DNA from: Botryllus schlosseri
Lineage: Eukaryota
DNA: 64,000 bases
NCBI GenBank assembly: GCA_051294905.1
Contig: CM119378.1
Span: forward strand, 20,274,001-20,338,000
Direction: 5' to 3'
The notes under the pieces are model-generated. The model searched no databases and was not told the DNA's origin. It saw only the letters and a list, made by a program, of their open reading frames with translations. Numbering within the stretch: position 1 is the stretch's first letter; each line of letters starts with the position of its first letter. Positions 5,762 through 64,000 of this stretch are shown here, in pieces. The translations under genes and the position numbers were made by a program.

Positions 5762-5843
5762 CGGGGCTCGTTCACTTTCGGACCAAACTCACTACATCCT
5801 TACGGGGAAAATGTGTTTTTGGTCCGAAAGTGAACGAGCCCCG
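5762..5843. repeat. Perfect 26-bp inverted repeat with 30-nt loop inside the hAT left arm
   Basis: CGGGGCTCGTTCACTTTCGGACCAAA (5762-5787) and its exact reverse complement (5818-5843). Confidence 0.9.
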
Positions 5844-14000: not shown

Positions 14001-14053
14001 GAAAACTCTTGAAACTTGTTATGTCATGTCGTGATGGTGGTATTTAACACTGC

Positions 14054-14900: not shown

Positions 14901-15039
14901 GCGATTTCGCAGCAGACCTATAAGACAGTAATAAAAACGTATGTGTCGTGTTACAGTCTCCAGTTTCAAGGCCAAAATCTCTTATGCTGTACCGAGACCA
15001 AATTTCCGAGGCTGCTATTCTTAGTCCTTTACAATGATG

Positions 15040-17420: not shown

Positions 17421-17847
17421 CAGAGATGAGCGGATTTGAAATTTCTATGTCCTAATCCAATCCAAATCCGAACCTTCAAATCCAAATCCAAATCCTAATC
17501 CATAACTTTTTCATATTCAAGTCCATGTCCAATCCTAATCCGATTCCAACTGGAAATTCAGAAAAAATACTAATTTATGCAATGAAGGGATTCGAAAATT
17601 TTCTTTCACAACCAACGATTCACTTGATTCAAGATAACTTAGTAACCATAAGTACATTAATAACTGATCTGAATAAAGTTTTACGCCATTCGCCACACGA
17701 CATTTCAATCTCGCAGAAAATCGGTCAATCTAATCCAAATCCTAATCCGTTCTGAAAAAAATGTCTAATCCAAATCCAATCCAAATCCGTCAAAATTTCA
17801 CAAATCCTGTTTTTTCAAAACCTAATCCTAATCCATGCTCATCTCTG
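17421..17847. mobile_element. hAT-type MITE with AATCCAAATCC subterminal repeats
   Basis: 11-bp TIRs CAGAGATGAGC / GCTCATCTCTG and perfect 8-bp TSD CAACCTAG. Confidence 0.92.
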
Positions 17848-18185
17848 CAACCTAGTTCCGCCAAGTCACGGTTGGGTTACGTCTGCTCATGGAAACACGG
17901 CCGACATGTACAACGCATGCGTCATGGCCTTTCGGCCGACCGTCGGCCGAGCTTGGAAACGAAGTAATAAGGCCTTTTGCAGGACTTCGATCGCGTGACT
18001 GGATAAGTGGATACGCATAGCAACCACATATTGGTTAGCAAGCTACTTTCTCGCGCACCTGCTTCAGTGGTAAATATCGAATAGTGTACTGTTGATTTCT
18101 GGTTGTAAACGTTTCGGAAATTTGTTGTAGAAGTCATCAGAGATTCACCTATGCTAGATGTCAATCCTGTACCTCGGAGAGTTTT

Positions 18186-19941: not shown

Positions 19942-20383
19942 ATACGGCTGAGATCAATGATATTCTCTATAACCATCCTGACACACGAAGTCTATATCTA
20001 GGGACTTATCCAGTAGACCAGTTACCAAAGAAACCAATTAGCGGAAAAATCGCTATCACCATTATAATTACGACGAGTCGAGCTTACCCGGATCTCACTG
20101 GGTGTGTATATACAGAGATGACGATACTCATTTTCATGATTCACTAGGTTTCGGGCCACTAAAACCTCAGATAATCGAATTCCTGGAGCCGGATGAATTT
20201 TCCGTGACTGGGAAACAGCTACAGAGTAAAACTTCGGATGTGTGTGGAGATCATGCTATTGCATTTTTGATAAAAAGAGCTCAAGGATTTTCAGTCAAGG
20301 AATACTTGAATAATTTTGGTGATGATAAAAAAGTTAATGATACGATTGTGCGTGCTTTTGTGAAGAGTTTGATTTCAGAGTAA
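19938..20383 (+). pseudogene. Adenain-like (Polinton) cysteine protease with one frameshift near 20060
   Basis: MNTAEI...YLGTYPVDQLP, then a frameshift, then NYDESSLPGSHWV...FHDSLG...LQSKTSDVCG. Catalytic H, D, Q and C are all present. The ATG overlaps the capsid stop (ATGA at 19938-19941). Confidence 0.88.
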
Positions 20384-21446
20384 TAATACAATGAATGTAT
20401 AAATGTGTATACTTGTGATTCTTGTTGTGGTTGTGAACAGCAGACTATTCTGTAGGTGCGAAACAGCGGTATGGAAAGCGCGAATAATCCGATCTGAAAG
20501 TATTATTCAGGTTACGTACGAATCAATAGCGAGGAAAGACTTGAGTTAGAACACGATCGGTCATTTGGCATGCCTGAACTATGATGTCTTCCTGTAGAAC
20601 CGTGTGAGCGATCCCTATACTGTAACGCTATCATGTCGCGTCTATATCAGGCACGTTAACATACCGCGTAAGTCTATACCCGTAAGTACAAATCACCGCC
20701 GCGCGCATAAGAATAACGATATATTAAAATCGCACTCACCGTAAACGTTGGGAAACGGTCATATATAATATTTTGGAATATAAACGCTGAGTAATGGCAT
20801 CGCCGTTTACTATACTTGATATTCAACACCACTTCACCAGAGATCCTATACCTGTAACGTTATCAGGCACGTCATCGACACAACGTATACCTGAAAGGTG
20901 GTATCACCGACGAGACAGCAGGTCATCAGCGATAGGGACTCGAAAAGGGTGGAGTCACCAACACGAGTTTTCACGGCAGGTCATCAGCGAGCCCTATACC
21001 TGAAAGGGTGGAGTCACCAGAGATCCCATAAGAACACATGGCAGGTCACCAGCGGAAGGGGGGGGTCACCAGCGGGCCCATAAGCCCACCAACACGAGTT
21101 TCGCGGCAGGTCACCAGCGGGCCCATAAGCCACAATGGCCGCTCACGAGCGATGTATACTACTACTGACGGTACACGAACTTCTTCTGTTGGCAAAGACA
21201 TGGTTGGCAGATTTTGAGTCGACTCCAAACGGCACCAAAATGAAAGTGTGAGCGGCCTCTCTCGACAGCACGAAATCTGTCGCCTCGATCATTTTTCGCA
21301 CAAAATGTGCTGGATAATACAAGCATTTTTCTATCTTTTCAGAATTGCTTCACTGGCCGGATGAATCGTCTGACGGGCCGTATGTTTGCCACCACTGACA
21401 TAAGCTGCGTACTGCGTATGTGATGATGCGAGCCGTTGCCGCTTAG

Positions 21447-26622: not shown

Positions 26623-27891
26623 TCATTTCTGTATGCGGCTTATCTCAAACGAATCGTTGCTGGCAACGCGAATACAGTATTTTGATGATATATTTTTGGA
26701 ATAACTGCTTGGAACCACAAGAAAGTGCCTGCTACATTCAGCGCGGCGTACGCATGCGCAGACAGTTACATTTTGAGAATACTCATAGGCGCGAGTCGAG
26801 GCAACACATTTCAATCCGTTAATTTGCTGTTCCGTCAAACTCCTCGGAGGCAAAGACGACAGATGGAATACATGAACACCCACAGCTTGTAACAAATGCT
26901 TCCTTTCGACGCAATACCTCTTAGAAGCTTGTATGAGCGTTAAGTGTAACACAGTGCAATCAGAAGCAGGTTCGACGCACAGTACATATTGCGGGTTATC
27001 GCAATACGTGGAATTACCGGCGATGCCACCGCTGGTACTAAACGTCCATCGATCATGTACGATTTTTTCACACCATTCGTTACCTCCGGTGGAGAACGCC
27101 CTTCCTAGACAAGTGGTAGCGAAAGTCACAGTGCCTGATTTATGATCTAAGTCGTGTAAAGTGTTCACGTTTACTACACCGCGTTGTACTTGGGATAGGG
27201 GGTCCCAAAGTAGCAGCGAGTCATCCGTTTTACCCAAGACAATACTGAAACAGTGTAAAGTTTGTGTATTCGTAACTTGGCGTGTATCATTAACGGGAGT
27301 GTTACAGCTTAAAAACACAGAATCTGCAGTGAAAGTTTTTAATAAACATCTCGCTTTCGATTGTAGGTCGTTTTGCGCGGACGTGCTTGGAAACCTATCT
27401 ATCCACGTGTACCCGCCCGTAACGAGAAGGTAGCCTTCTGAAGGCTGCCCTGATATTAAATTACCGTAGCAGCCGTACTTTTTAGCGCAAGATTTCTCCA
27501 GAAGCGCCGCCCAGAACTCACACTCAGACACGTTAGAGGCGTTCAGCAGAGTCCAGCAACCTGCGGTTTCGTACACCGGCAGTAAATCGTCTATTACGTA
27601 AGGCTTCCACAAGCCGCAATCCCACAAATTCACCGTTATTTTCCCAGACCGAATATCGCAAGGGTCAAACACTCTTCTCCAAGCTTCTTCCGACTTCGTC
27701 AAAGCGTAAAACGCGGCAATTAACCAACAGTTTCCTAAGCGACCCTGGGCGGGAAGAGATATGGTCTTTCCACGCAGGCAAGCGTTCGGGCATATCTCGT
27801 GAGTTCTTTTCCAAAAAACGTCTCCTTCTGCGTGGACGGGTTGCTGCAGACTCGAATCATCGGCGGGGAAATCAATGTCAACCCATTTCAT
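26623..27891 (-). CDS. Atypical intronless calpain-like protein (CysPc plus domain III/CBSW, no EF-hands), 422 aa
   Basis: DFPADDSSL, WKR.HEI, QGRLGNCWLIAA (Cys), EFWAALLEKSCAKKYGCY, LHCFSI (His) and DPLS in place of NPWG. Domain III shows W...TSGG...NPQY, LIQ, VGVHVF and FLVVPSSY. Confidence 0.85.
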   Translation of the reverse strand: MKWVDIDFPADDSSLQQPVHAEGDVFWKRTHEICPNACLRGKTISLPAQGRLGNCWLIAAFYALTKSEEAWRRVFDPCDIRSGKITVNLWDCGLWKPYVIDDLLPVYETAGCWTLLNASNVSECEFWAALLEKSCAKKYGCYGNLISGQPSEGYLLVTGGYTWIDRFPSTSAQNDLQSKARCLLKTFTADSVFLSCNTPVNDTRQVTNTQTLHCFSIVLGKTDDSLLLWDPLSQVQRGVVNVNTLHDLDHKSGTVTFATTCLGRAFSTGGNEWCEKIVHDRWTFSTSGGIAGNSTYCDNPQYVLCVEPASDCTVLHLTLIQASKRYCVERKHLLQAVGVHVFHLSSLPPRSLTEQQINGLKCVASTRAYEYSQNVTVCACVRRAECSRHFLVVPSSYSKNISSKYCIRVASNDSFEISRIQK

Positions 27892-28581
27892 ACCTTGATA
27901 TTGGCAGAGTCTGTGATGGGTTGATTTCTCTTTACATCAATCTCCAAGCAAATACGGAGTACGGCTATGTTAACATTGATGAGGCTAGGCAACGGCAAGC
28001 AACATACGTAGAAGAAAAAATTGGCCTATAGAAAGATAGGATTCAACTCAACTTAAGCTTAGGATTCTTATAAATGCACTAAGACACAAATAGATTCACT
28101 GTCAGCTAAGCAGCGTTCAGTTAAATTCGTCTGGCATGAGGCCACAAATGTGAGTCACTCTGCTGTAAAATATTTTTGGAGGCATAGTGACTGATAAGCA
28201 CTTTTTCCTGTGAAAATGTCCCCAAAGTGGAAACATTATACTACAGAATGGGCTTATCAGCGGGAGACCCAAAACTGTTGAAACGTCACATTAATAGTTT
28301 GGAATTGTATAAAATACACTCCATAATGACAATACGGACACTGTTCCATACATGTAAAAGCACTAATTTTGATGGAAATGGTTAAACAGCCACGAGCCAC
28401 CTAAATACAGCCCGATTGCATATAAGGGTATTTTGTGCCAGATAAATCCATGCATTATGGAAAAATATTTAAACCTTGTTGATTTGTCGAGTCCGTTTAC
28501 GGTGCAGGGAATAATTCAGAGGGAACCTCTGGCCTAAGAAAAATTCCCCACAAAAACAAGTATTTCTAGTCATCCGGTGAT

Positions 28582-32100: not shown

Positions 32101-33536
32101 CAATATTCATTTGTTTTAGTGAATGAGGACTTGCCTTGGTATTTGAATGTCATAGTAGCAACAGGATACATTCTGAATTTGGATTCAGTCACGATGCAGG
32201 CATTTGAATACATTCGGCCGCAGTTGCTTAATGCGCCGCCATAGGCAGAAGTGACTGAACTTTAAAGGGGCACTGTGATCTAAATATGTGGCAGCAAGAT
32301 AAAGATTGAGAAACAATTATTGGCAGCAGTGGTTTTCTTCAGAAAGCCACCATATTGGAACTAATTATCTGCATAAAACGCATTGCGTGTTCTGTGGTGT
32401 TTCGCGAGTAATACAGAGTGCCTCATTTCACACGACTTTTATTATTTCTCTCATAAAACTAATGCAAAGTTAACCCAAAACTATGAATCCGAATTGTAAT
32501 ACAAAAGTAGGATTGGTATTAAACTAACCTGCGATGCAATTGATAATACGTAAGGCAGGAACACGTCTCTGGTAGTTTTATTCGACCACAAGAGACCGTA
32601 CCTTCCTACAACATACAGCATCAGCACTCCCAATACGATGTCAGCAAAAACAGAAGCAACGACATCCCTGTCTTCCAAATTTGTCGCCTCACCGCCATCA
32701 GAAGAATTTATTCTTTTCAAACTCTTTGAAAAGTCACAAGTCCTGCGTCTGACGTGCGACAAAAAACTCGAATATCCGACCACTTTATCGCAAATTCGCA
32801 GAGGCAAAAAAGTCCATCTCGGCAAACCGTTTACAATCCTATGACCCGCATTCACAGGAAGACTGATTACGAACATCAAAAACTGAGCGAATCCTTTCAA
32901 CAAAAAGAAAACAACACTCTCCTCTCTTTTGACACAGCAATGGCTTATTGTGACATCGTCAATCTCATTAAGACCAGATTCATAAGACAGGATCCCGTTT
33001 TTACATCTCTGAACAGTTTCTAACAGTTTTTCAATATTACCGCCATTATCGCCTACTTTCAAATAGGCATCACTAACAATTTCTCCGTCCCACAACTCCG
33101 ATTGATTGTAAAGCACTAGAATTGTGTCTGTGGGCTCCGTCACGAATGCCGCACCGGAAAATATGTCTTCTGGGGAAATATCGGACTTTTGTGAATGTTC
33201 CACCTTGAATGCAACGCCGTTGTTTTCAGTTTTATACCCCAATATTGAAACCCATCGGTCCTGCGCAAAAAGGTTTGGGATCAGACAACGGAAATCGTCA
33301 TCTTCACCCTCCCATGAATCATTCGGATACCAAACTCCCAGAGGATGGATTTTTATATCTTTATTCTTCTGAGAGTGCTTTTTCAGGTACGCGCGAAGGT
33401 TTTCAGGAGTTACAGGCAGATGAACAACGGCAATCACAAACACAGCACTGAGGTCGTCGCCGAAGTGCCCCAACAAGATACCGGGAGGTGCGTTGCAGCA
33501 CAAGTGCGGGAGATACACAGTTCTCAAATCAGACAT
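29113..33536 (-). CDS. PIGQ: Phosphatidylinositol N-acetylglucosaminyltransferase subunit Q (Gpi1), about 604 aa
   Basis: Exons 32529-33536, 31891-31966, 31621-31826, 30365-30577 and 29113-29424, all GT-AG and frame-consistent. Motifs [54 protein letters not shown] and [24 protein letters not shown]. Confidence 0.93.
31497..31545. repeat. Short degenerate TAACCC (telomere-like) tract in a PIGQ intron
   Basis: CTAACCCTAACGTAACCCTAAATTTAACCCTAACCTAGCCC. Confidence 0.6.
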
Positions 33537-33708
33537 TGTGACTCATTAAAAAATAGGAACTAAAATGACTGTACAAACACATATTCTGCAAAAGTACACA
33601 ATCATTATACACGAGTCAAAACAGACGGCAGGAAAATCATAAGTGAAAGTCACCGAAGGTCAATGAGTACTTTGAAACTCGACGACGCCCATGACCATTA
33701 GCGTGCAT

Positions 33709-34199
33709 TGTGGCTGTTCAAAAAATAACTTTTTCTTCAGATTTCACTGGCTATGTGATCACATTGTTAGATTGGCGAAAACAACGCTGCACACCAAATT
33801 TGGCTCAATATCAACCAGTAGAAGCAAAGTTTAAAAAAGAATTCTAATTCCATGATTTTATAATAAATAATTAAAGAGTTAGCCACCGTAAATACAATTT
33901 TATTCAAATCCCAATTTTTCTACTGCAATAACTTCGCTTCTACTGATTGGAATAGAGCCAAATTTTGTGTGCATGGTCTCTGCTGACAACCTGACAATTT
34001 TATGTGGTCGCCAGAAAATTGGATTTTCTTTTCAATTTATTTTTTTAATATAATAAATTCAAAACTTGCTACTGCAAGAACCTCGCTTCTACTTGTTGGA
34101 ATTTAGGCAAATTTGATGTGCAGCGTTGTTTTAGCCAACAATGATTTTATCATGCAGCCAGTGAAATTTGACAGAAAAAATTGTTTTTGAACAGCCCTA
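33709..34199. mobile_element. Palindromic MITE (TAGGGCTGTT TIR family), copy 1
   Basis: TIRs TGTGGCTGTTCAAAAA / TTTTTGAACAGCCCTA, long internal inverted repeats and 6/8 TSD GCGTGCAT/CTGTGCAT. Homolog at 51362-51985. Confidence 0.75.
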
Positions 34200-34889
34200 C
34201 TGTGCATCCACTAAATTTGCTTTCCAGTGACGGTGTATTTTTTTACATTTCAAAATCAACTCCAGGCTCGTTGCGATGGTACAAATAAGATAATCTCACT
34301 ATTTTACTAAAAAAAAAATTTGACTAGACCAAAATACCCATCGTCTATCTTGGTTGCAGTTGTTCACAAGCAGACTCGTTAACAGACTCACTTATACATT
34401 TTTAGTTTATAAGCTCAGATGATAAATTGAGATACCAGTTCTCGAAAAGCATTGATATAAATAGGAATTCAAGAAATTATCGAGCCACTTACATAGGTAT
34501 GTTAACTGAATAGATATGGTGTCGCACTGTCACACTGAACCATAAACCACCACCATCTTTGCCGTGAAACTAGTTGAAAAGCTGAAAAATCTCTTGCCTA
34601 GTGGAATTATGCCATGCAGCAAAAAGTCAAGAATGGATATGTAGCCTACTGAATTGTGTCGAAAGGGCAACATACCTTAATGCATATACCGGATTCATTA
34701 ACAATTAATGATGCTTTTCTTAGAATCTCAACCGTTATCAAAAACAGCTGTGCAATAGTATTTCAATGATATTACCAGAATTAGAGGTTCCAAGCGAATG
34801 AGAATGCAGACCCATTTCCAACACTTTTTTTCTGTTAAGTATCGATCACATCCCACCTGGGCTATAAATTTAGATGTGGCCGCAAAATA

Positions 34890-35768
34890 TCAGCTGCCGT
34901 TATGTTCAATTTCATCTAGCAATCTTACAGAATTGTAATGTTCACCGAGACCAAGCTCATGTCTGTGGTACGTAAGTATGATAGGTTTACCATTGTACTC
35001 TTCGCCGATAATAAGACGCGGCACGTCGGCCTGAACCACATGAATCGGAGTTTGCAAGATATGGGACATTGCGCGCAGTTCCAACTGCCCGCCCCACGCA
35101 GCAGTATTGGCAACTTCGTCGCAATATTTTTCATACTGTTCCTTGTTAAAGCAATCGCCCGTGTTTGGATCTGTTAGGAACGGCATAAAATCATCAGCGT
35201 TACACAGCATGTAGTCTGCAGTTTTGCGTCTCAGTGTGTCTGAAGTGTAGGCGTTGTCTGTGTTCTTTATTTGATCCACAATCGCATAATATAAACAGTT
35301 GCCGTCCGGAACCATCGGTTTGACTTGCAGCTTCATTTGTGCTAATAAGTTCTTGATTTTTTCCTCCTCGGCATATCGTAGAGTGTTGACATAATCTTTT
35401 TCAGCTTGAGCTGCAATTTCCGATTGCTCTTTCGCTTTGAGAGCTTTTTTGTCTCGCTTTTTCTGAGCTTTGCTTATCCGCGGTTGGGCTGCATTAGTGT
35501 TTACTTGCTCAGATAAGTCACCGTTGGAAGGTTTGTTCGTATCTTCCAGTTGCGATGATTCTTTTTCATGTTTTTGCGCCAACTCACTTTCCAGAATGGC
35601 AATCTGGGCTTTCACTTCTTTATTTTTCTTCTTGTCGCCTTTCGGAACGCCTTTTTTCAAGGCTTGTATCTTGGATTGTAATTCTTTTCTCTCCGCCTTG
35701 TGCTTGACGTCGAGCGCTTGCTCAGGAGTAAGTTCTCCCGAGTCGGCATTAGATTCGCCACCATCCAT
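34890..35768 (-). CDS. OTUD6B: OTU-domain deubiquitinase 6B-like, 292 aa, single coding exon
   Basis: N-terminal coiled region HKAERKELQSKIQALKK.VPKGDKKK, catalytic PDGNCLY, WGGQLELRAMS and YHRHELGLGEHYNSV. ATG at 35768; the ORF track extends to a GTG at 35792. Confidence 0.93.
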   Translation of the reverse strand: MDGGESNADSGELTPEQALDVKHKAERKELQSKIQALKKGVPKGDKKKNKEVKAQIAILESELAQKHEKESSQLEDTNKPSNGDLSEQVNTNAAQPRISKAQKKRDKKALKAKEQSEIAAQAEKDYVNTLRYAEEEKIKNLLAQMKLQVKPMVPDGNCLYYAIVDQIKNTDNAYTSDTLRRKTADYMLCNADDFMPFLTDPNTGDCFNKEQYEKYCDEVANTAAWGGQLELRAMSHILQTPIHVVQADVPRLIIGEEYNGKPIILTYHRHELGLGEHYNSVRLLDEIEHNGS

Positions 35769-37586
35769 TTTAAGCCTATGATTGGCCACCAACTACTAAT
35801 TCTGCATGAAACGTACGGAAGATTGTTTAAAAAAGTTGCAGCTATATTCAGTCAAAGCCAGTAAGTGAAAATTTTAGAATAAATGTAAAAGCAAAGATGG
35901 TTAGGTATGCACAAGCAAAATGCAAAACTTAGAGATATTCCAGCCGGACAGGCTAGATTCCTTCAACTGTGGCTGCATGCAAAGTGTTGACAGAAGTTGG
36001 CACAATGGGACATACGGTCAGATCTACCAATGTGTGAATTTTTCATGCAATCACAATCTATAGGCCAACAATGAAAGGTTCATGAGAAATATCTCTGAGT
36101 CAGGTCACTGACAAGAGAAATTCTAACTGGGAGTATAGTCCCATCGTTTATACTGTTCGTTTTCTGAATATCTCTGCTTCATGACGCGAAATTCTAGCGC
36201 GTGGGTAGGCAAAATTTCTCAATGGCTTCTGAATAGGGGGCAATCCCATTTCAGGTCAAATAAAAATAGATTTGGTCTCCTAGTTTCAGGTTTTGCTGAG
36301 ATTTGACCAAATTCATTATGAAATGTATCTGAGTGAATGATAATTTAATGTAAATGAGTGTTTTTCAAAGTTATTGCATGCAAAAACATGCTTTTCATGC
36401 TCATTCTACCAGCTGAAGGACGGATTTTTTGTAAGAAAATTCTAAATGGCCTGTAAATGAGCAATTTAGATTTTGGAAAAGTTTTCATTTCGTTCAACCT
36501 TTACTCTATTCTGCAGTTTCACCAGAGTTCGTCCAAATTGGTAGTTCCTACTTTTTATTTCGAAATCTCGCAACCACACTGCCTGATCAAACTATTTTCT
36601 CATACACAGCATGATCAATCATTATTCATTTCACAATATACAATATATTGGCAACCATAGAGAGATTTACCCAGATCCATTATTTTTACAAAAAGGTTCA
36701 AATGACGATAGGGAGTGAAATAATGACGAATTCACTAAAAAGGACGCGAATTCGGCTGCTATTTATTACAACAAAAAGGCAGGCATGGAATTAAACCATA
36801 TATTATAATATTTACTGTGAATATAGTAACACCATAAACCACACAACGATTCGTCACTCCAATGCATAAAACTAAATTTCACATGAAATGAGTGGCCTGT
36901 GTGATTTTTAAGTAACACAATAACATGGTTAAGGCTATGACTTAAGCCAACTTTGTGTTCAGACCGCCATCAATCAGAGACAAGTTACAATGCAGAGGCA
37001 GTAAAGAATAGTGTTTTTTTTCAGTGCAGTTCTGTATGTGAAATAGATGCACATGAACAAAGTAGTTGACCCGAATCACAAATGAATCGGCCTGCCATCT
37101 TTTCATAATAATTCCCCTCCTCTGTGACCATCAATTTTAGCCTATGATAGTGGTTCTCAAACAAGATGAGATGACAATTGGACTGCTCAGGGGCGCCGCG
37201 AGAATATTAAGGGTAACCCAGTTGAAAAATGACTAAAATTGAGGACATCCAAATTTCAGTCAGCGCCATCATAATCTGGGTCTCAAACAGTGATATGACG
37301 TAGGATACTGTGCCACGAACTATTTTCCCTCTCAGAGGGTGCCGCAAGATCCAAAAGGTTCAGAAATAACTAGAAAAATTTTGGCTCCCAAGTCAGCGAA
37401 ATGCAGCCATGGTGCGATACGACTGCCCGAACCCATCACCCTTAGCTATGCCGACAGAGTGTGAGATACCAATGGACATAATTTCTTGCCGCTAATGAGA
37501 CCATGGACTGGATTGCAGATTCTGCGAACATGAGCTTTGTAAAAGAATGATCAGGCAATTTTGCAATTATACCTTACGGTGCGCCA

Positions 37587-39583
37587 TCATTCCCCTTCAC
37601 TAGAACCACTTTCGTCAGATCCATACGACCCAAGAAGGCTCAGACTGCCAGCAGTAGCACTACCGGGAGCCTCGGAGACTTTCGATGTGGTCACTTCTTT
37701 AGCAGTGTTACTCGAAACAACTTGTGCTTTCGCAGGGACAGTTTTCTTGACAATACCCAGTAGTTTCGCTTTCTTTTTGACAGATTCCTTACTTGTGGAT
37801 GCGGAAGATAATAAATTGTCTTTTTTAGTCGGTTTCGAAGGAATTGGCTTCTCAGACAGTAGCAAATTTGCTGGATTTTTCACATCCGATTCCACAGAGG
37901 GTCCCGCCTCTTCACTTTCATCGTCACTGTCGTTAAGGCGTCGAATTTTACTGGAACCGAAAATCTTCTTCATCTCTTCGTCGTCTTCTGCCGCTTCGCG
38001 CTTTCTTCTCTCCTCTTCGGTCTCCTGATATTTCATCAGCATGCCTTCGTAATTTATCTGTAAACAGATGTTGTTAGTCACACAATCGTTTACTATCGGA
38101 AATATCTGCATAGGTTGATCTAAGAAATTGAAATTATATAAATAAAGCACGAGGCTGCAACACAACGGATACACTCAACAGTTCTTAACCAGGAGTCGGT
38201 GGACCCCTTGGGGGACGAATCACCAAATCAGGGGGTATGAGATTCATTGTGAATTAGGCCTATACGCTATCCAGAGCATAAAAATATTTTGCAAACCAAC
38301 AAAAAGTGGAATCTTGTCTAGGCAGATCGATTAGACTCAAAAATTTACTTCGTGCCTGGTGCAAGTTCTTGTCAAGCAGGCCTACCACGTTTACTGTTCA
38401 TGGAAGGAAAGTAAAATCATCCTTTTGGGGCAGACCACGCTGCTTGCTAGCTCAATATTTGTGGCAGTTAGCTATTTGATTATATTATTTTTTACTGCAA
38501 CTTTTGACGGTATGTTGCTCATACAGACGCTGTAAGGCATGATTTTATTATAGGGAATATAGTTCGCAGCACAGCTGGAGATGAGCATCACTCTATTTCA
38601 CATACAAACGAATACATGGCAGCAGCGGGAGATCACAGACTGCTTCACACTGTCGATTCTACCCAGTTGGCGACATAGATAAGTGTCGCAAGTGAGATAA
38701 ATGCACTGCAACTTGCTGATTTTGTTATGACTGATTGAGTGGTTTCAGGTACGATGACATAATGTTACACTCGTTTGTACACACGAGAAACAAACACAAG
38801 AGAAAGGCCATTGTATTTTTGGTCAAAATGCAACAGCGTGCTACGAATTGCTGAATTGCCAGTGAGCTAAAATATATTGGAGATAGAAGCGAGAACCGCC
38901 GTCAATTGTATGCCGCTGGATTTATACGATTCATTTGATTCAGGATTCTGGCTCAGACCAAACACTTCATTAATCCATATTTAGCTTGTTGACTGACATT
39001 CATCCCAGAATGTAATCGATAGGCTAACATTGGTTATTATGGCAACGAAATGCCATGTATCTCATCTCTGACATGTAGCCTACATTACCTTAGCCTGCCG
39101 CTTGTTCAAATCCATCAACTCTTCCAAATTCTCCATCCTCTCCATCTCCCGCTTCGAGTCTCTCGTTCTATTCTCCAAGAGCTTCATCGGATTACCCTCG
39201 TCCTCTTCACGTTGCTTTTCTTCTTCTTTCTCCTGCTTTTCGAGCAACTTTTCAGCCTCAAAATTCCTAGTAGCTCCATGCTCGATGGTGTAATCCGTGT
39301 TCTCCGGATCCGTTTTAAAAGTGATCTCGGCGACACACTTTGTGCATTTGATGTAGAACCGAAATATGCGCAGTCCTAGGTAGTCTTGGTCTTGGACGGT
39401 TTCTTTCCTGGAATTGAACTTGGTGCCTTTGTAGATGTAGTTACCGCACGTTTTGCAACGCATATGAAACGGTGCCATAACCCGAATAACATACTGACGG
39501 TCTTTGGCTAGTTTCAACTTAGGAATTATCGACGGATCGTAATCCGGAGGGTAATACTTATTTAAGACTTTTCGTTCAGACAT
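37587..39583 (-). CDS. YJU2: Splicing factor YJU2/CCDC94, about 321 aa
   Basis: Exon 39089-39583 ([18 protein letters not shown]...[11 protein letters not shown]...FRFYIKC) joined by a phase-0 GT-AG intron to exon 37587-38057 (INYEGML...GSLSLLGSY). Confidence 0.95.
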
Positions 39584-39598
39584 CCTTCCGAGCTACCA

Positions 39599-42315: not shown

Positions 42316-42470
42316 NNNNNNNNNNNNNNNNNNNNNNNNNNNNNNNNNNNNNNNNNNNNNNNNNNNNNNNNNNNNNNNNNNNNNNNNNNNNNNNNNNNNN
42401 NNNNNNNNNNNNNNNNNNNNNNNNNNNNNNNNNNNNNNNNNNNNNNNNNNNNNNNNNNNNNNNNNNNNNN
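42316..42470. other. Assembly gap (155 N)
   Basis: Run of n characters. Confidence 1.
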
Positions 42471-50343: not shown

Positions 50344-51361
50344 AAATATACGCAATGATGTTTTCGAAATTCGAGATGCCATATTTTTTTAATATACCGA
50401 AGTTATAGGTGAAGGTGCTAGTTGTAGGTTTTAGCGGTTTCTGCTCTAATGTCCGATATCAGTGGGGCTGTAGTCTTAAGCATGCATTGGTCGGATTACG
50501 TCGGTCAAGTTAACTGCTAAGTTTCATCCGAAGCGACTTTCCCTTTGGTAAGTTTGTGTCACCAACAATCCACTACCTCGAGTGGATGTAGGCTTTAGCA
50601 TAGGACCGCTTTTATGCAGAAACAGCTTGCGCAACTCGAACTCGACGACATCGTGTTGACTTCGCTAAGTGGTTTCGACTTGAGATGACTTATATCTAAC
50701 ATATAAAGAGCTCGTGTATAGTTGAACGTCTCACCACAAGTTAGAATTGTAGTGTTTTTCCAAATTTCTGGTTATAACTGTCTGACCTTGCTGATTGTGT
50801 TACAATGAAAAGTTGGGAAGGTGTCCAAACGACTTGGCGTAGTCTTTGTAATCAGACACCCATCTGAGCCAAGACGATAAAATTAAGAGACATGCACACT
50901 GGTTGGAAACACATAAGGGATAACATAAAACGACTATATAGTGATGAAAATGAATTACGCATGTGTCGATAGGCGATGCTGATATGCAGGACCATAATTG
51001 CCGCACCCCAAACCCCTCAATTGGGGCGCGATCTCGAAGGAGGCCCAGAATTATTTCGTGAATGAACATAAATTATAGAGTTTTTGTTATTTATGCAACC
51101 TTATTCATTTTTTTTTCGTGCTAGGTGCGATTTATTGTTGCCTAATATCTCAGTCATTGGTTACCCTCTCCCAAGCAAAAACACGCACGATTTATAGAAA
51201 TGGGCATTCCATCGCCGGCCTTCACCGCGCCGCAACTCACCAAGACATATAAAGTTTTAGGCCATGTGGCGTGCGACTCCGACAAGTGCATATGCCAGAA
51301 CAATCGGCAGCGAGAAAACCTTGGCCGAAAAGGCTGACCTAAAACTTCTATATATAAAAAT

Positions 51362-51985
51362 TAGGGCTGTTCAAAAGCATTTTTTCTTTCAAATTTCACT
51401 GCGTACTCGATAAAAAGATTTTGTTGGCTGAAACAATGCAGCACACCAAATTTGGCTCAATTCCAACCAGTAGAAGCGAGGTTCTTGCAGTAGAAAGTTA
51501 TGAATTTATTAAATAAAAAATAAATCAAATTTTCAGCCGACCCCGTAAAATTGTTAGGCTGTCAGTAAAGACGATGCACACCAAATTTGGCTCAATTCCA
51601 ACCAGTAGAAGCGAAGTTATTGCATTGGAAAAATTTGGGTTTAAATAAAATAGTATTTACGGTGGCTAACTCGTTATTTATTATAAATCATGGAATTAGA
51701 AAAGTTTTTACTGCAATAAATTCGCTTCTAATGGTGGGAATTAAGCCGAATTTGGTGTGCATCATCTCCGCTGACAGCCTAACTATTTTATGGGGTGGAC
51801 AGAAAAAAATTGAAATTTTATTTTTTTAGTTTTTATGTGATAAATTCAATACTTTCTACTGCAAGAACCTCGCTTCTACTGGTTAGAATTGAGCCACATT
51901 TGGTGTGCAGCGTTGTTTTAGCCAACCGAATAATATTATCACATAGCCATTGAAATCCGAACAAAAAGTTTTTTCAACAGCCCTA
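51362..51985. mobile_element. Palindromic MITE (TAGGGCTGTT TIR family), copy 2
   Basis: TIRs TAGGGCTGTTCAAAA / TTTTCAACAGCCCTA and internal inverted duplications of GCACACCAAATTTGGCTCAATTCCAACCAGTAGAAGCGA. Confidence 0.8.
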
Positions 51986-54316
51986 ATATGCATATATGTT
52001 CATTGTTCAATTGTCCGTAGACGCCTAAATCGTCGTAGGCGCCGAATGTTCCTGTCTTGACAATCTGAACCCCTCAAGACAACTGCCACCCCGCAGAAAA
52101 AATTATTTGCCAGTGAAGAAATAAATATTTGAAATCGTGTGCGTCTTTTAGTTTTTAGTAACTTTATATCATTATCTTTTGGCATAGCTATTGAATATTT
52201 ACGGCCCTACATTTTCCTAGACAACACCTCACTTAGCTCTACCCGTAAATCTGATTACGTGGGCAGAGAGAGGATAAAAAAAATTATATCAATAAATATG
52301 CCATTCCAAATATTATTGACCGATTCGATCATGAATTAGAGAAAATTTTCGCGCAGGGCGCGATCTGGCGAGATATAGTGACGGATCAAAATAACAAATA
52401 TCGCTCGCGCTTAGGGGTGGTTCGTAATATACTATATATTCTAGTATACTAATACACATACTATGTATTCTAAGCTGTTTATGATGAATTACGCTATTCT
52501 GACAGGTGAGACTTGGCCCATTCGTACCGCACATCTCCTTTCGCGCTGCATTTTTGAACAATAAATACGCAAATTTCGTGGTGTCGGAAGTGTTCATTAT
52601 TTAGTCATTTATGAGCATCGATACACAATACCAATATTCCGTATCATAGTAATATTGTGAGAGTTTACTAAAAACGATAGTAAATTATGTTACTACAGCA
52701 TTTCGTGTTTGGCTTACCAGTTAAGAGGTGTAAACTTTTTCATCTTTATAAAAGTGTAGGCTATATCCGGATGTGGGGTTTATGACCCTATGGGGGGCCA
52801 AAACCAACGTTTTTGGGGGGCTGACGAAGTGCTGTTTCGGCCCTGCTGATATGTCATATCAAGGTCCGGTAATCTTGAGCGCTGAATGGTATTGATTCGG
52901 TTGAAATTGCTTGTATGTCGATTTAACGTGGGCAATGGACAATCGACATGCTCGGTGGCTGTCGGATAGCCGGCGAGATGCTGTTCCATACCTGAGGTAC
53001 GATGCGTTGCGATGCGTTTTCTTTTATTCCGTTCGGATCATATGGTAGTTGTTCCCTCGTTAGTCGATAATGCGCGCGTGTTGAACTTGTGCGCAGACTA
53101 TACTAGATAATGTTTTTAGTCTAATTAGACTAAGAGCGAAATGCCCGTAGTATAATTCTAATCTGATATGTTTAATGTTTCTTTTCCCTTATTATAATTT
53201 TAATTTAATTTGTGAAATGTTTCTACGCTCTAATTTTAATTCTAATCTAATTTTTGGTTTTCCTGAAAATGCTACAGGAGAATAGTATCGTGCGGAACGA
53301 GTCAATCTTGCTGTACATTTTCCGTTTCCACACTTATGAGAATGAACTATACGATTTCATATGGAAGTATTCTTTAGTTGCTCAAGTCTGCTTGTCGCTT
53401 CTGATACCTGGGGGAACTAGTCGCTGAAATATGTGGAACAGTGCCTGCAGCGGAAAAGCAGATCAATCTATATATTGTCGTAACAAAACAACTGTCACTT
53501 GATGGTTTGCATGCAGTGCTTCTTTTGCGAGAAATTCGGTGACAATTTCATACATTGAACAATCGCCCTGGGTCAATTGCGACTCAAATTTATACATTTC
53601 GCTACATATACTTTGAGAACCACTGCGATAAACCACGAACCGTGAACCCCCCAATTTTAGTTCAAATAGAGCTCAATTATCGTGAAACCGTCATCTGCCT
53701 CGTGAAGATATTACCTGAAGGCTAGTGATAAACATCAACTCAAAGTGACCGTTCATCGTTCATGTATATCACAAGAGAAAATGGATTTTTGCAAACAATT
53801 TTTTTCAAAATCCAAAGAAAACACCCCCAAACAGCTACATGTTTGTATCAGTAGGCAATTAAGAATTTGGCAATTAAAATGAGTTTGCACAGCATAATAT
53901 TTCATCTCAAAGTGAGTTCTGACGTTCCAGCAGTTATGAAACGAGATTGCTCTAATTTAAAAATACAAATTAGTTTATCAACCATATTGCAAAGATTGAG
54001 GTTTCGCGGACCCCCTGAAAATGCCTCGCGGATCCCTCGGTTGAGAACCACTGACCTATGCTATTCGAGATAGAAATCATTCTCTGTCTAGCAGTCGCCT
54101 GATATAGCTCATCACCCTATTGCCATACTTTGAAGTCAGAAAAATACCCGACACTTTCTACCTGCAATGGCCGATACCAATATTTCTTTCAAAATGAGCT
54201 ATCGACTCGATATTATTAGAGAACCTATATGCGGTCGTGCTCTACTGAAAGCGTAACCATATTATGTTTGCAGTGCTATCAAGTATCTAACTATACACAA
54301 ATGACACAACTCTGAG

Positions 54317-57300
54317 ATGTCGGTCGCCACTTGGACGACTGCCGACGACGAGGACGCTCCCGGTTAGTATTATCCGGAGTCACTTGTTAGATATCCGGCA
54401 GATCCGTATTGAAACTCCATGGATTTTTCAGGTAGCGGAAACTCGACAATGTCTGTTTCTGCGCCGGAAATCACGTCATACGGGAGCGTGACGTCATCGC
54501 ACGAGTCGACAACAAGAACGACAGCAAGAACAATAACAATAAAGAGTAAGTCGGATGTTTTGATGATCTTAGTTTGCACCTTCGTGAGAGATTTCGGTTG
54601 AATTTGGATTCACGGCCACGATTCACGATTTGGAAATGAGATTTCTAAATCTTCATTTTTCATGTGAATTTTGGTCAAATTCATCAATCACCGGATTTAG
54701 ATGTAGGCGCGAGGTGAAATTAATTCTGGATTTGGATAGAATCTAAAATTTGTATTTGGAATATTGAATCCTCCATCTCTGTCATATGACACCGAATCTC
54801 TATTCAGGCCGACTGATGAACTACGTCAACGGTACAACGGAAACGTCACCTTGGTTGTCTGACGCCACGTCCGAATCATCCGGTGATTTCCCTCCAACGC
54901 TCGCAGGTAAAAACTCTCCTCCTCAATCCCATTCAGTTTATATCATTTTTCCAGGATTGTAACCAAGTCACAAGGTTACGAGGCACAAGGCGATATCACT
55001 CCTATAGTTTCTAGTCGAGTACTTTCACTTTACCACCGATTCAAGCTCGGACCCCAATTCAGGGAGCAACGGGTCGAGTCCGAGTCACAGTGTCGTGACT
55101 CGAGTCCGAGTCTTAGGGTGGAGCCCAATTCTTCTCCTCAACTAAGTACTGCTTAAATGCGAATCTCCACTCAACTAAAAATCGATTGGTACTCAGCGTT
55201 GAGTGCGCGCCAATTCTCTCTACTCAGTTAAGTATCGATTTCCAGACGTCGTTTTCCGAGATACCGTTGCCAGATTTTTTTTCGCCTTCGACCGGACACG
55301 CGTGAACGATTTTGTCATGACAACACGACGCTATCGTCCCTATTTCGTCACTGACCTACAAAGTAGACGCAGTTCTCAGGCTTCTCACTGATTTATCTAA
55401 ATGCAATGAATAACCTCAGCTGATCCACACTCTTTGAAGATGACCCAATAGAAATATATAAATCCTTGAAGATACCCGAAACGTTCCTATGCCCCACAGA
55501 AGTATATTTGCAAGACGCTACAAACCCATTCGAAATTTATGAAGATAAGTTTCACACCAGGCGAACACGTAAGTGCAGGCCTGAAAGAACAAAATAAATG
55601 CATCTATATCGTGAAAACAAATTGAAAAGTTAACAGATTTTCAGGATTTCTTTTTAATTCTCTTTGCCCCTCTACCATTCAAATTCCCAAAGGACCCAGA
55701 CCCACCCGACATTTTCTCCCTTAATTATTCAGTATTTCTTGTTTCCAATAGCTTATTGCTGCTGTCGTCTAAATTGGCTTGAAGTCATAGCGACTCCCAA
55801 CACTGATATTACATATTACCATGCAGGAACTCTATCAGCTGATCGAGGTTCATGCTAGGGGTCTGTTCAAGATGCTTCGTTTATTTAATTGTGGGAAGAG
55901 CATGCATAATATTAATAACAATCGTCAAGTTATATTTTTCACCTGAACAAGTCACACACAATGTAGAATGCGATAAGACACAATGCGATGTAATGAACAG
56001 ATATGAGGATATCGAACGACACGCAGTTGCGATCTTTTTTTTATACTGACATCCACCTCGGCGGCTCGGCCTATAGAGTGCCCGATGTCCACAGTTCTTT
56101 TCTATGTTGATCTTTCTGAAGTCACGGCGCTTTCTAGTTCTTTCCATTCCTTGTGAGTGCTTTCTTTCGGTGGGTCTTTTTCTGTGCTTTTTTTGTCGCC
56201 GGCGGGGGATGCTAGCGCATTGAGACTGCAGAAGTTACCATTCCGGTATACCGAGATGCCGTATGACAAGAAGTCGAAAGGGTACAGAAGATAATTATAA
56301 ATGCAATTATAAACACAGCATCCGCCCAAGCGCCACTGATGTCATTCGCTCAGCAGAACCTCACATCTAGAAATAGTGTGCCAATATACGACAATACCGG
56401 TACTCCGGTATTTGGCGGGTGTTGCCTGCAGTTGGCTGCTCGACCGTGAAAATTGACACTTAAGTCTGGTGGTGCGCTGACTTAGATCTGAGTGCCGATC
56501 TGGACGCATTTGAGTGTGAGTATACTTTTTGGCGTGAGTTGAGTAACGAAATCGTTGCTGAGTAGAGAATCGCCACTCAGCAGAGAAATTTGGCTCCACC
56601 CTAAGTCATTGTTTGCACAGTTCATTATTGACATCGTGTGGGTTAAACTCGCTTTCTTCAAACTCTTGGGTATGTATGCAGGCTAGGTATAGGGGGAAGG
56701 GGTGCTTCTTGGCAATTCAGGCATTTTGCACCATGTCTATATTTATCATGAAACTACATAGTGGACAATATCAGAAAGTCTATCAGTGATTGTACCGTCT
56801 AAAGACTTTTCAATAGCGAGATAAAGAGGGTGCAATATTTTACAGGGTTACCATATGTCCTCATTTAAGAGGATTTGTCTTCTTTTTATTCTATAAATTG
56901 GAAGTGTCCTAGGATGACAATGATCAAAGATCTTGCATGCCGCGCCAACTGTATTCGATGCGTGCGTAACTGATGCAAATGGCAACAGCTCGTGTGATCA
57001 TTTCGCAGTGAAAGCTCTGCTGAACAGCAACAAACTGCAACGAGACATACAATTTTCGTAAGTTTTCGACAGCATCGATTGCAAATATCTCAAACGACAT
57101 CAGAAATAACGTCAAACTCCAATCTTACGACGACTCGAGTGAAGTCCTGCTTCGAAACTACAATCAGCAGCTTCGCCTGATAATTGATAAAGCACTCTCC
57201 ACCGATCACGAAATCAATTGTCTTGCGCTGCTCACCCTGGTTTAGCAATGATATCAGGACCGCGAAAAGACTGCGGAGAAAACTTGAACGTCAGTGGAGA

Positions 57301-60300
57301 GCTTCTAAACTAGTCGTCCATAGACAGATGTACCAAGAACAATGCACTCGGGTGATCAGAATGATAGTTAAAGCAAAATCTAGCTACTACAACAAGTTGA
57401 TAATGGAATGCAAGGATAACAAGAAGAAACTTTTCAGCGTAACGAAAAACCTCCTCGCAGAATCGAGGTCGGTCAAACTACCATCGAATCATCCATCGTC
57501 ACTAAGTCTGGCAAACTCATTTAACACGTTTTTCCGTGACAAGGTGGGCTCTATCAGACAATTTTTGCTTGCTCAGCAAGGCAACGGCCCATTGCTCTAC
57601 CTCAGGGGTGGGCAAACTTTTGAGCTCGCGGGCCGCATTCAACATCTGAATCCATTCGCGGGCCGCACTATATAAAATTGGGAATATTAACCAAAACGCA
57701 ATATTGGAGATATTACATGGAGATAATATACCTAAGTGCTTATTTAAAACAAGCCAAACGTTGCTTTGATGATATCGTACACGCGTCAGAAACATATAGT
57801 GGCGAGATTTCATAGGCTGCTGGCGGACCTCAATAACCAATTTGTCAAAACTATAGAGATCAAGGTCGGTTGGCCCGATTCTTAGAACAGAATTGAAATT
57901 TGAATCTGAGCAACGATCTGTACACAGATTTACTAATTTCACTTTTGGTTTAGTTCTAGGACACACAATGCTGACAGCATCATAACCATGTTAGCTTCAA
58001 ACACGCTTCTACTATGCGTTGATAAAATATAAATACCCCGATTCTACGCATACAAACGAATATACCTAAGACACGCCCGAATCGTTTTTTTGTAAGAACA
58101 ACACTGAAATAATTAAAAATGGAGTGGCAAATCTGAAATCCCACTCGTGATCCAAATTATGTCAATCTCGTTGCAGCTATCCCGCTGTGATGAGTATTTA
58201 CCTTAGATCAGTGATTCTCAAACTTTTTAAGACACGCCCCCTCTTATGATGGTAAAAGATTTCGCGCCCCTTCTCGTCATGTCACAAAACGCAACCAGGA
58301 TGCTAGCAAACCTAACGCGTAGTTTGATGGCATGGAAGGTTCCGACTGTTGATGAGAGATTTTTAAATGTGTAATTCAGACTAAATACAGAACAATAACT
58401 TTGAATTGGCAGTAAATCGCGCGGGGTGCGAAAATGTTTTCAGTTGCGCTCAGCTTCGCCCCCCCCCTCGTCAGGTGCTTTCACGCCCCCAAGGGGGGGC
58501 GTGTCCACCAGTTTGAGAACCACTGTCTTAGAATTATCATGATTAATCAAGTCCCTACATTAATTCGATTTTTAGTACGCATTTTATCAATATTTAAAAA
58601 AAGTTTCTTTAGACTCTCGCGAGCCGCACAGAACGGTGTTGCGGGCCGCATGTGACCCGCGGGCCGTAGTTTGCCCACCCCTGCTCTACCTCCTGTACAC
58701 GAAGCCAGTCGGAGATATTTGCCGTCGCCATGGTTTCTTCCACCAATGCTACGCGGATGATACACAGGTCTATACGGTCTTATGAGAAATAGCAATGATT
58801 GGGAGAACGTGCCATCCAAGTTACAGCGATGTCTTATTGATGTTGAGCTCTGGATGACACAAAATCGTCTCAAGTTAAATAAAGAGAAAACTGAACTCAT
58901 CATTTTTACGCCAACCAGACGCCCCATCGACCACAATCAATTCACCATCAGATTCGGACCAGACACCATCCGAGCCAAGACTTGTGTACGTAACCTAGCT
59001 TTTCACTTTGACGGCATGCTCTCAATGGAAGAACATATCGACTATACATCAAAGATCTGCTTCATGTATATCCACAAGATCAGTCGAATCAGGAACTACC
59101 TATCTGAGGATGCATGCAAAGCCATAATACTGTCGCTGGTGATATCACGGCGTGACTGTGGAAATGCTCTGCTTTACGGGGTAAACCAAAATTGCATCGA
59201 CAAGCTACAAAAGATCCAAAACATCGCTGCTCGTTTGGTAACTCGGCCAAGGAAGCGTGATCACGTAACACCGATTCTTAGATCCCTTCATTGGTTACCC
59301 GTGAAATTTAGGTCTGAATACAAGCTTCTTCTGTACGTCTTCAAATGCATGGAGGGAAGTGCACCAGCGTCTCTTCGTGAGCTAGTGACAACGTATAATC
59401 CCGGAAGAGCGCTACGTTCTCAGTTGCAAAAGCTCTTGTCCGTTCCAAGAGTCAGAACATCGACCTACGGCGATAGAACCTTTTCTTCCTCGGCCGCCAT
59501 TCTGTGGAACAATCTTCCAATTTCTATCAGACTATGTGGCTCGCTATATGTTTTCAAACGCAAAATCAAGACCGTTTTATTCACACGAGCGTTCGAACTA
59601 GAGTAGTGTTCATTCCGCCCTACAGCTATGCACTTCGTCTTTTATACATATCCTTTACTTTTATATTTTATTGCCTTTTATGTACAGCGCCCTAGTGTAG
59701 TAATGATATATTGTTATATTCGGCGCTCTATAAATTATTATATTATTATTATTATTATGACGCCCAAATGTCCTCATTTTGGGAATTTGTCCACTTATCC
59801 TAGAAAAAGGTATTGAAATGCGATAAGAAACTCGACTCCGGCGTAGCGAACACCAGAGTTGGCAAGACAATCAAAGAAAAATACAGCGCGACGGGTATTT
59901 CGGGAGTAGAGATGGAAAAGACGACCTTTAAATATTTTTCAAAATCACCAGTTATCTTTTCCGGTACTAGAGCTTTCAGAATTTTTGAAAAGTGCCCCAT
60001 TTTTCGCATCTCAAAATATGGCAACCGTAATATTGTAACTATATGCTTGGGCGACAGCAAAGGCCTCGCATTCATAATATACTCCTTTCTTTTTGAATAT
60101 AGTTTATGCCCCAATTCTTCAAGTATCGGTCCTGATACACGAGAATTGAATCAAGTAATATTGAATGAGTCGAGTCATATGACTTGGTCATATATGGTCA
60201 AGTCATGCGCACTAACTCGAGTACAAGTCGAGCCGATACGAAAATTGACTCAAGTCGACTCGAGTCATTACAACCCTGTATTTGTCTTTATTCAGAAGAG

Positions 60301-62110: not shown

Positions 62111-63111
62111 TGCATAGCTAATTATCGGGGTGCATTTTATCACAGTGGACATATTTGCAGAGGAAATGCTGGCTGCTCAAATGGGGGAAGGGGACCACCG
62201 AAAAACTTCAACTTGACAAAGCTGACTTATGTAATTATTGGTGCAGTGCCCCCGCCATGAAAAGAAAGGAGAAGGGTTGATTGGTCTGCTCAGAAAGGAC
62301 TCTGAACGCCAGAGATCTTCTCGTAACACTGAGAGCTCAATGTAATAATGGCCTCTGTAACGAAAAAGGTGACGTAGTTAGGCTATATACTTAATTGCTC
62401 GCTCGCACATTGGAACAAAGAGTTCGGTTCTCTGGCGGAAGCGGTTGAAGGTGATTATACCGACCAGGCAACGACAAAGGCGTAACCAGAAAAAATATTT
62501 GGGGGGGGGCGAAAAATCCGATGACGTAAATGAGCCCCTGCCACCTAAAGATAAGGAAAAATGGGCTAAACGATGGTCTTGGGCCCTTATTGGATGATTA
62601 ACACAACACCTGAGGCGATCTTTATGCATATATTCCGCTCATATAAAGTGATGTGTGATTGTAGAAAACTGTGACGTCAATACTTTCGCGCGAAGCGCGA
62701 AAATTTTTTGGTTACAGAATGAAAATTGTTCATTATATTGTTACTTGCATATTGCAAATACGTTTTCATTATCAGATTTACCGGCAAAGCTGATAGAAGT
62801 GGTGTCATCGAACATTCAGGGCAAGTACACTTGAACTATGTTCATAACACACGGCAAGACTATTTAGAGCAGTGGTTCTCAACCGGTGATCCGCAAAGCC
62901 TTTTCAAGGGATCCACGAAAACTCCAAATTTGCAAAATGGTTGATAACCTAATAATAATAAACTATTTTTGGTTTGTTTTAAATTAGAGAGATGATGAAG
63001 CACTCTCGCTTCATAACTGCTGAAAGTTCAGGACTCACGTTAGTAGTTAAGTAGATCGGTCGCATGACGCAATGGGGTTCTTATGGGCGGGGTGGCGAGC
63101 TAACGAGAAAC

Positions 63112-63276
63112 CGGGGGTGGCGAACTAACGTTTTCGTCTTATGGCGGGGGTGGCGAACTAACGTTTTCGTCTTATGGCGGGGGTGGCGACCTAACGTTTT
63201 CGTCTTATGGCGGGGGTGGCGAACTAACGTTTTCGTCTTATGGCGGGGGTGGCGAGCTAACGTTTTCGTCTTATGG
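63112..63276 (+). repeat. 33-bp G-rich tandem repeat (5 units) in the Polinton terminal region
   Basis: CGGGGGTGGCGAACTAACGTTTTCGTCTTATGG x5, bracketed by a ~42-bp direct repeat at 63080-63121 and 63270-63311. Confidence 0.95.
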
Positions 63277-63930
63277 GCGGGGTGGTGAGCTAACGAGAAA
63301 CCGGGGGTGGCAAGCGGCTTTTATGTCTTATGGCGGCGGCGGCATGCGGCTATTGTGTCTTGTGGTCGCACGGTAACCCTTGTCAGCATAGGGATAGCTC
63401 GCACGCGGCTTCGTTGTTGGCATGTCGTACTTCGTGTTGAATATGTATCAAGTAAATAGTCATGTGATTGATCCTTAGGTAATGTGTATATTCCAAATTA
63501 CGGCGAGTACGACAATGATATATCGGTATTCTTATGGACGCGGCGACGATTCGTACTTTCAGGCATCTCTCGCGTGGTGTTGAATATGTACGAGTCACCA
63601 ACAATAACCGCGCAAACGGAAACGTGCTTGCAAGAGGATTAAGCAGTACAACCTATATTTCGAATAACCTGTGCACTGAATTATTTCTCGTCCAGCCGCT
63701 ACTATCGATTATTACACTAGACCAGTCAGTGTGAAATAGTTTGATCGTAAATTATGATATATGATGTCGTAGTTTAGTCGTGTCAAATGACCGATCGTGT
63801 TCTCTTTCCTCGCTATTGGTTCCCACCTGAATAATACTTTCGGCTTATTCGCTGTTTCGCACCTACAGAATAATCTGCTGTTCGCAGTCACAACAAGAAT
63901 CACAAGTATACACATTTACACATTCGTTTA

Positions 63931-64000
63931 TTACTCTGAAATCAAACTCTTCACAAAAGCACGTACAATCGTATCATTCACTTTTTTATCATCGCCAAAA
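63931..64000 (-). CDS. C-terminal 22 codons of a Polinton cysteine protease (partial, cut by the window edge)
   Basis: FGDDKKVNDTIVRAFVKSLISE*, identical in amino acids to the end of 19938-20383. Confidence 0.85.
   Translation of the reverse strand, partial: FGDDKKVNDTIVRAFVKSLISE

Follow-up and report, generated by a model that had tools for sequence, protein, structure and literature searches.

Animal Polintons (Mavericks) and the adintoviruses are the closest described systems to the locus analysed here. In the text cited from PMC4028283, the Polinton PY protein is a jelly-roll capsid, and the PRO protein is an adenovirus-like maturation protease. For vertebrates, the cited sections of PMC8097293 give (AGT)2 as the commonest Maverick end motif, count 134 intact elements in 17 species, and describe 96% of the loci as degraded. 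Up to 1,676 Polinton regions are reported for one coral genome in an extract of PMC11131425. Adintovirus DNA co-purifies with particles from insect cells, according to a passage of PMC8502044; a preprint states, in the portion cited, that no virions of animal Polintons have been observed (10.1101/2023.08.22.554363). Virion formation by animal Polintons is still disputed; intact proviruses are material for this question, yet they are not scarce.

The window, a stretch of 64,000 nucleotides from Botryllus schlosseri, contains two Polinton-type ends, termed copy 1 (terminus at 21158-21166) and copy 2 (63042-64000). Copy 2 is quite probably the protease-side end of a Polinton/Maverick (polintovirus) independently inserted into an older hAT-type MITE, with the two copies coming from sister variants. 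As far as the excerpts of PMC8097293 go, the elements resemble vertebrate Mavericks in the (AGT)2 end, in the capsid gene directly before the protease gene, in the low dN/dS, and in the mostly degraded copies. In contrast, the capsid-protease pair here is directed outward, its end lying 783-889 bp from the terminus, while most vertebrate modules are directed towards the centre; elements of the toad Rhinella marina are an exception among vertebrates and a precedent for the outward layout (PMC8097293, same excerpts). The likeness to adintoviruses, as described in part in PMC8502044, includes an adenain-like protease, a hexon-like capsid, and endogenised degraded copies in animals; their Alpha or Beta class is set by PolB, a gene outside this window, as are the gasdermin-X and cupiennin accessory genes that mark the Beta class. 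The copy 1 capsid is 14% identical to the capsid model of Drosophila-associated adintovirus 3, and 32-38% identical to named homologues from Paramuricea clavata (coral), Pleurodeles waltl (salamander), and Plakobranchus ocellatus (sea slug). From these identities we infer that the capsid leans to the vertebrate-type (Beta) adintovirus group. Mavirus and Sputnik, virophages or Polinton-like viruses of protists, are alike in the jelly-roll capsid fold and the clan CE maturation protease. However, their capsid identity is only 9-13%, and the host genes of the window and the named homologues point to an animal element.

Virion genes of copy 1

The following features were assigned to copy 1:

18129-18342 (+): middle piece of the gene for the major capsid, covering profile positions 129-190 (tblastn with P0005, E 9e-14; profile, E 7e-11)
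18343-19214 (no strand): 872-bp hAT-type MITE within the capsid gene, with perfect 15-bp TIRs and 8-bp TSD GTCTAGAT
19216-19941 (+): C-terminal part of the predicted jelly-roll major capsid gene, open to the stop (homology and model)
19938-20383 (+): protease gene with one frameshift between 20049 and 20065; residues 1-37 and 43-147 of P0001 match different frames
21158-21166 (-): terminus, (AGT)3; the flank starts GACGGT (sequence)

The capsid stop overlaps the protease start (ATGA). P0005, used to locate the middle piece, is a 426-aa capsid homologue; capsid profile positions 1-128 were not found in the window by tblastn or profile search. Homologues of the capsid number 4589 at E<=0.001; identity reaches 48% for the best and does not exceed 43% for the others. 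The C-terminal 237 residues were modelled with a pLDDT of 93.4. The top PDB folds for this model were the PBCV-1, grouper iridovirus, Sputnik, and mavirus capsids (E 4e-6 to 7e-4), and comparison with the PBCV-1, iridovirus, Sputnik, mavirus, and PRD1 capsids gave TM scores by query of 0.33-0.51. The predicted fold of the C-terminal part is that of a double jelly-roll major capsid. No full-length capsid more than 48% identical was found in the sequence searches, some of which were word-limited and missed P0005; thus no intact capsid of this family appears to be recorded in the searched collections. Judged by sequence, the capsid lineage is divergent within a well-known class.

The larger protease piece of copy 1, used as query, retrieved four relatives among six candidates. 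One of these, P0001, is an uninterrupted 147-aa protease with 96% identity over this piece, and its contig of 7,972 bp is too short to be that of the window; nine differences were counted among the 146 residues compared across both pieces (6%). P0002-P0004 share 50-52% identity with P0001. Four residues (His53, Asp67, Gln95, and Cys102), which we take to be the catalytic set, are invariant in all five aligned rows, in the order typical of adenain-type proteases. The protease profile matches pS273R of African swine fever virus (E 3e-5), and the Atlas neighbours (score 0.97, TM 0.88) carry PF00770 on 27-38% of their members. The protease model, built from the five-row alignment, is poor (pLDDT 55.6) and gives weak support; its best match is the adenovirus 8 protease (Z 3.9, rmsd 4.8 over 103 residues). 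A phmmer search of P0001 against the PDB gave nothing below E 0.4. At the family level the features are those of an adenovirus-type cysteine protease, of which no more than the final 22 residues are visible in copy 2.

Copy 1 is plainly dead: the protease gene is frameshifted, a MITE lies in the capsid gene, and the left part is missing. No second terminus, as a partner for the terminal 870 bp, was found in the window. Copy 1 falls short of an intact Maverick, which has uninterrupted core ORFs, both TIRs, and a TSD. For polymerase, integrase, ATPase, and penton, no Pfam match was found in 70 of the 80 frames of at least 55 aa within 3400-18000; the other 10 frames overlap a hAT transposase gene and were left out of the scan, and short or frameshifted remains would escape it. 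The Polinton pieces and their homologues went unrecognised by both Pfam (29 frames; 75 proteins) and PHROGs (5 proteins); among them, none of the 9 intact protease and capsid homologues drew a Pfam match. Rfam gave 0 matches in the 64 kb. Among the defining Polinton/Maverick features testable in the window, none had a failing outcome. Since pPolB, integrase, and a second TIR and TSD are seen for neither copy, the class assignment of copy 2 rests on the homology to copy 1; by this homology, copy 2 is very probably an animal Polinton/Maverick.

Terminus and probable insertion site of copy 2

The visible part of copy 2 comprises 959 bp (63042-64000), the last bases of the window; Polintons/Mavericks are 13-25 kb long. 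The features of copy 2 and its flank are as follows:

62870-63041 (+): one end of a hAT-type MITE, beginning CAGTGGTTCTCAACC and aligning to a paralogue at 54053-53909
63036-63041 (+): CACGTT, directly before AGTAGT; putative left copy of the expected 6-bp TSD, whose right copy would lie beyond the window (sequence)
63042-63047 (+): terminal motif AGTAGT, (AGT)2 (sequence)
63079-63365 (+): terminal repeat zone, probably inside the TIR, made up of a tandem array and a repeat pair
63112-63295 (+): 33-bp tandem array, 5.6 copies, 96% matches (tandem-repeat analysis)
63302-63365 (+): 32-bp repeat pair
63498-63566 (+): ungapped subterminal block, homologous to copy 1 20744-20676 (15 mismatches in 69, 78%; BLAST)
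63767-63933 (-): conserved region past the protease stop, 7-11% mismatch to copy 1
63931-64000 (-): adenain-like maturation protease by homology, last 22 codons and stop; the gene continues past the window

The MITE end (172 bases) and its paralogue share 70.5% identity with gaps (within-window BLAST, E 2e-20), and their local alignment stops at 63041, the last base ahead of AGTAGT. The paralogue reads CACTTT where the copy 2 flank reads CACGTT; CACGTT may thus be regarded as target DNA. AGTAGT alone is not rare in the window (25 occurrences, 22.4 expected). Its frequency on the forward strand is 2.7e-4 per base, so that its presence at the MITE breakpoint is unlikely by chance; the motif at 63042 is meaningful because of the junction and the homology, not because of its rarity. 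Position 63042 looks like a genuine integration junction, where the older hAT-type MITE breaks off, and this MITE is the probable integration target of copy 2. The Polinton/Maverick terminal motif, (AGT)2 or (AG)3, is found at both 63042-63047 and 21158-21166. The earlier note had placed a second Polinton end, inverted relative to copy 1, at this AGTAGT; the motif, the junction, and the homology to copy 1 all support the placement. The other end of the paralogous MITE (54053) was not found in the window. The segments 53655-53759 and 53850-53887 match repeat DNA elsewhere in the window, at 43135-43037 and 42656-42619, respectively; the paralogous MITE therefore probably runs on beyond 53909.

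A BLAST comparison of copy 2 with copy 1 reported just two matching blocks: 63767-64000 with 20584-20314 (79.7% with gaps, E 1e-68), and the subterminal block. The mismatch per aligned base was 4.5% in the protease codons (95% identity), 7.1% and 10.8% in the two blocks past the stop (the former being the 84 nt directly after it), and 21.7% in the subterminal 69-bp block. The terminal 79 nt showed 22.7% mismatch (6 gaps) and the repeat zone 30.7% (21 gaps); these two alignments scored above all 200 base-shuffled controls. For 63567-63766, no alignment to copy 1 beyond chance was found, and 128 of 200 shuffles scored as high. The repeats of both copies have a common CTTATGG...GGTG(A/G)C core, but the repeat units themselves differ; CTTATGG occurs 8 times in copy 2, 3 times in copy 1, and 18 times in the whole window. 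The two copies had been described as colinear, differing by indels. The matching blocks do keep their order, but the match is patchy, with an unalignable stretch at 63567-63766 and different terminal repeat units. Similarly, the claim of a second copy of the same Polinton family stands as far as homology goes; since the terminal repeat units differ, sister variants fit better than the "same" element.

The 1-kb flanks of copies 1 and 2 show no relationship (their alignment score of 23 was reached by 37 of 100 shuffles, which had a mean of 22.0), and the hexamers next to the termini differ (GACGGT in copy 1, CACGTT in copy 2). The homology does not run into the flanks, as it would in a segmental duplication. 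Because the flanks are unrelated, copy 2 appears to be an independent insertion and not part of a segmental duplication, in agreement with what had been proposed. Both copies present the protease-side end, facing away from the intervening DNA. A single element spanning 21-63 kb was also considered but discarded, because the two ends face away from each other, with host genes between.

The conserved region past the protease stop contains AATAAA at 63932-63927 (-) in copy 2, followed by a GT-rich tract; copy 1 has AATAAT there. This stretch is likely the 3' end of the capsid-protease transcript. A small frame past the protease (63712-63915, 67 aa) has a 48-aa counterpart in copy 1. It had no Pfam match, no usable Atlas match, and a recognition score below threshold, and it was not taken as a gene because the poly(A) region accounts for the conservation more simply.

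Genes and repeats of the window

Pfam identified host-type genes for a calpain (26623-27936), an OTU protease (34890-35792), and a two-part Saf4/Yju2 protein (37587-39592), which suggests that the window is animal nuclear DNA. The calpain frame (-) is a single frame of 437 aa with the protease domain and domain III, apparently intronless; its protease domain was matched to profile position 207 of 297. Compact host genes occupy 32481-39592 (-), with the OTU protease as one 300-aa frame and Saf4/Yju2 as two frames. A 353-aa frame in the same region, which presumably resembles PIGQ, had no corresponding Pfam match. The observed/expected ratio of CpG is 1.06 in the whole window and 1.5 in copy 2; as CpG is not depleted, there is no trace of methylation-driven decay. 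The single assembly gap consists of 155 N at 42316-42470.

An apparently complete hAT transposon of 3,131 bp lies at 5512-8642, with 15-bp TIRs (1 mismatch) and a perfect 8-bp TSD, TACTAGAG. Its transposase is an open frame of 605 aa with zf-C2H2_12 and Dimer_Tnp_hAT domains. Since the TIRs differ by one base, this transposon may mobilise the MITE in the copy 1 capsid gene. The MITE also has an inverted relative at 57596-58688 (81-83%), which interrupts a fragment with frames at 57184-57675 and 58761-59606; the fragment had no Pfam match, and is assumed by us to be LINE-like. A nested inverted-repeat complex (12735-17966; pieces 87-100%) has CGTTTCCATG-type ends, which we take to resemble PIF/Harbinger MITEs; the loss of copy 1 sequence begins directly next to this complex. 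Two 231-bp perfect direct repeats (15040-15270 and 15737-15967) are 697 bp apart, in the manner of LTRs flanking a recent LTR element of very small size, and a 48-bp tandem duplication is found at the second of them. Other repeats include a 94-bp satellite (1140-3442; 24.6 copies, 95% matches) and a palindromic repeat family in two clusters (33712-34207 and 51350-51997) with an internal period of about 148 bp.

Protease tail and origin of the two copies

All 22 tail residues of copy 2 are identical to residues 126-147 of P0001 and to copy 1. In the tail codons (copy 1 20315-20380, +; copy 2 63934-63999, -), 3 of 66 sites differ, and all three substitutions (GGT/GGC, GTT/GTG, and GTG/GTA) are synonymous, exactly as the earlier note had read them. 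The neutral probability of three silent changes in three is 0.009-0.021 (13.7-18.3 synonymous sites, depending on transition weighting), and the 95% upper bound of dN/dS over the 22 codons is 0.45-0.66. The proposed purifying selection on the protease in this lineage is thus supported; the pattern is suggestive but not strong, because the region was chosen post hoc and contains only three substitutions. The silent divergence of the tail is about 19-22% (95% interval 4-64%), in agreement with the 21.7% of the subterminal block. Silent divergence is near 20%, yet the copy 1 protein is only 6% from P0001, which suggests that most of the divergence between the copies arose in ancestors replicating under selection. 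Each copy, we infer from these figures, inserted after the two had diverged as replicating lineages. The same reasoning, selection during activity and insertion afterwards, is applied to virion genes in the cited part of PMC8097293.

The silent-only pattern had also been read as a pointer to a complete, virion-competent copy 2. This reading is not supported, since the dead copy 1 has an identical 22-residue tail; the signal is one of past selection, on the ancestors while they were active, and does not tell how intact copy 2 is now. The decay of copy 2 since insertion can be bounded in two ways. Zero replacements in about 50 sites of the tail allow a decay of up to 6%. The five 33-bp units contain two differences, which puts the decay at 1.2% with an upper bound of 3.8%, but this clock is soft because tandem units can homogenise after insertion. 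If the coding sequence is taken to be 12 kb long, it would be free of premature stops with a probability of 0.56 for 0.1% decay, 0.05 for 0.5%, and 0.001 for 1.2%. No nested insertion is found in the visible 959 bp. Copy 2 looks young, but it is more likely to be already damaged somewhere than fully intact; a complete and intact copy 2 is doubtful.

Several other explanations were weighed. A segmental or inverted duplication in the host might have produced the two copies, or they might be the two ends of one rearranged element, with a silent-only pattern arising by chance. Their opposite orientation within one window and the small number of substitutions (only three) would be compatible with this; but the homology ends at the termini, the flanking hexamers differ, both copies show the same protease-side end facing away from the intervening DNA, they have different repeat units, and decay is unequal across sites (4.5% in codons, 22% subterminal), so that such an origin deserves hardly any credence. 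The copies might also be mosaics, in which the protease and its 3' region were recently exchanged by recombination or gene conversion between variants with different termini. Identity drops from 95% to unalignable across 400 bp, and the repeat units differ. Moreover, the 84 non-coding nt past the stop are nearly as conserved as the codons overall, and recent exchange of this stretch could also yield such high local identity. Against this, the silent divergence of the tail (about 20%) equals that of the subterminal block; constraint alone accounts for the identity gradient, and exchange seems unlikely.

What copy 2 amounts to beyond the window is a separate matter. It might be a short non-autonomous or truncated remnant, a protease-side end only, as copy 1 is in the same window, without capsid positions 1-128 and a second end; the region is also crowded with MITEs. 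The visible part of copy 2 has no signs of decay, however, and nothing in the window marks where copy 2 ends. A remnant is a serious possibility, though not the expected outcome. A complete, intact, and possibly virion-competent provirus would be a special case of the preferred reading. The clean terminus and junction, the uninterrupted 959 bp, the near-identical 33-bp units, the AATAAA retained where copy 1 has AATAAT, and the existence of an intact family protease elsewhere (P0001) are all compatible with it. But the tail has no discriminating power, since the dead copy 1 has the same one, and intactness needs a decay of about 0.1% or less, whereas the data bound it only at 4-6%. Furthermore, with no capsid above 48% identity found, no intact family capsid is recorded in the searched collections, and the base rate is low, as the cited sections of PMC8097293 count 134 intact elements and class 96% of the loci as degraded. 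An intact provirus is therefore improbable, and less likely than a remnant.

The preferred reading remains that of two sister variants and independent insertion. The variants would have replicated apart, reaching about 20% silent divergence, with their terminal repeats remodelled and the protease kept by selection. Each variant would then have integrated at its own site, copy 2 into the older hAT-type MITE. By analogy with the class, as outlined in part of the preprint 10.1101/2023.08.22.554363, integration would have been carried out by a retrovirus-like integrase with a 6-bp duplication (CACGTT), replication would have been protein-primed from the AGT ends, and the genome would have been packaged in particles with capsid maturation by the protease. 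Selection on the virion protease suggests that the ancestors spread via particles.

The locus contributes a divergent capsid lineage and a sharp prediction for the far junction, and it leaves the virion question where it was. Copy 2 might, at long odds, be a recent and fully intact polintovirus whose capsid is at most 48% identical to any known relative, next to a sister variant that shares the protease but has a different terminal repeat (origin) module. If this were true, copy 2 would be a natural provirus of an invertebrate, a place to look for particles or free linear genomes, and would exemplify fast turnover of origin repeats under a conserved virion module.
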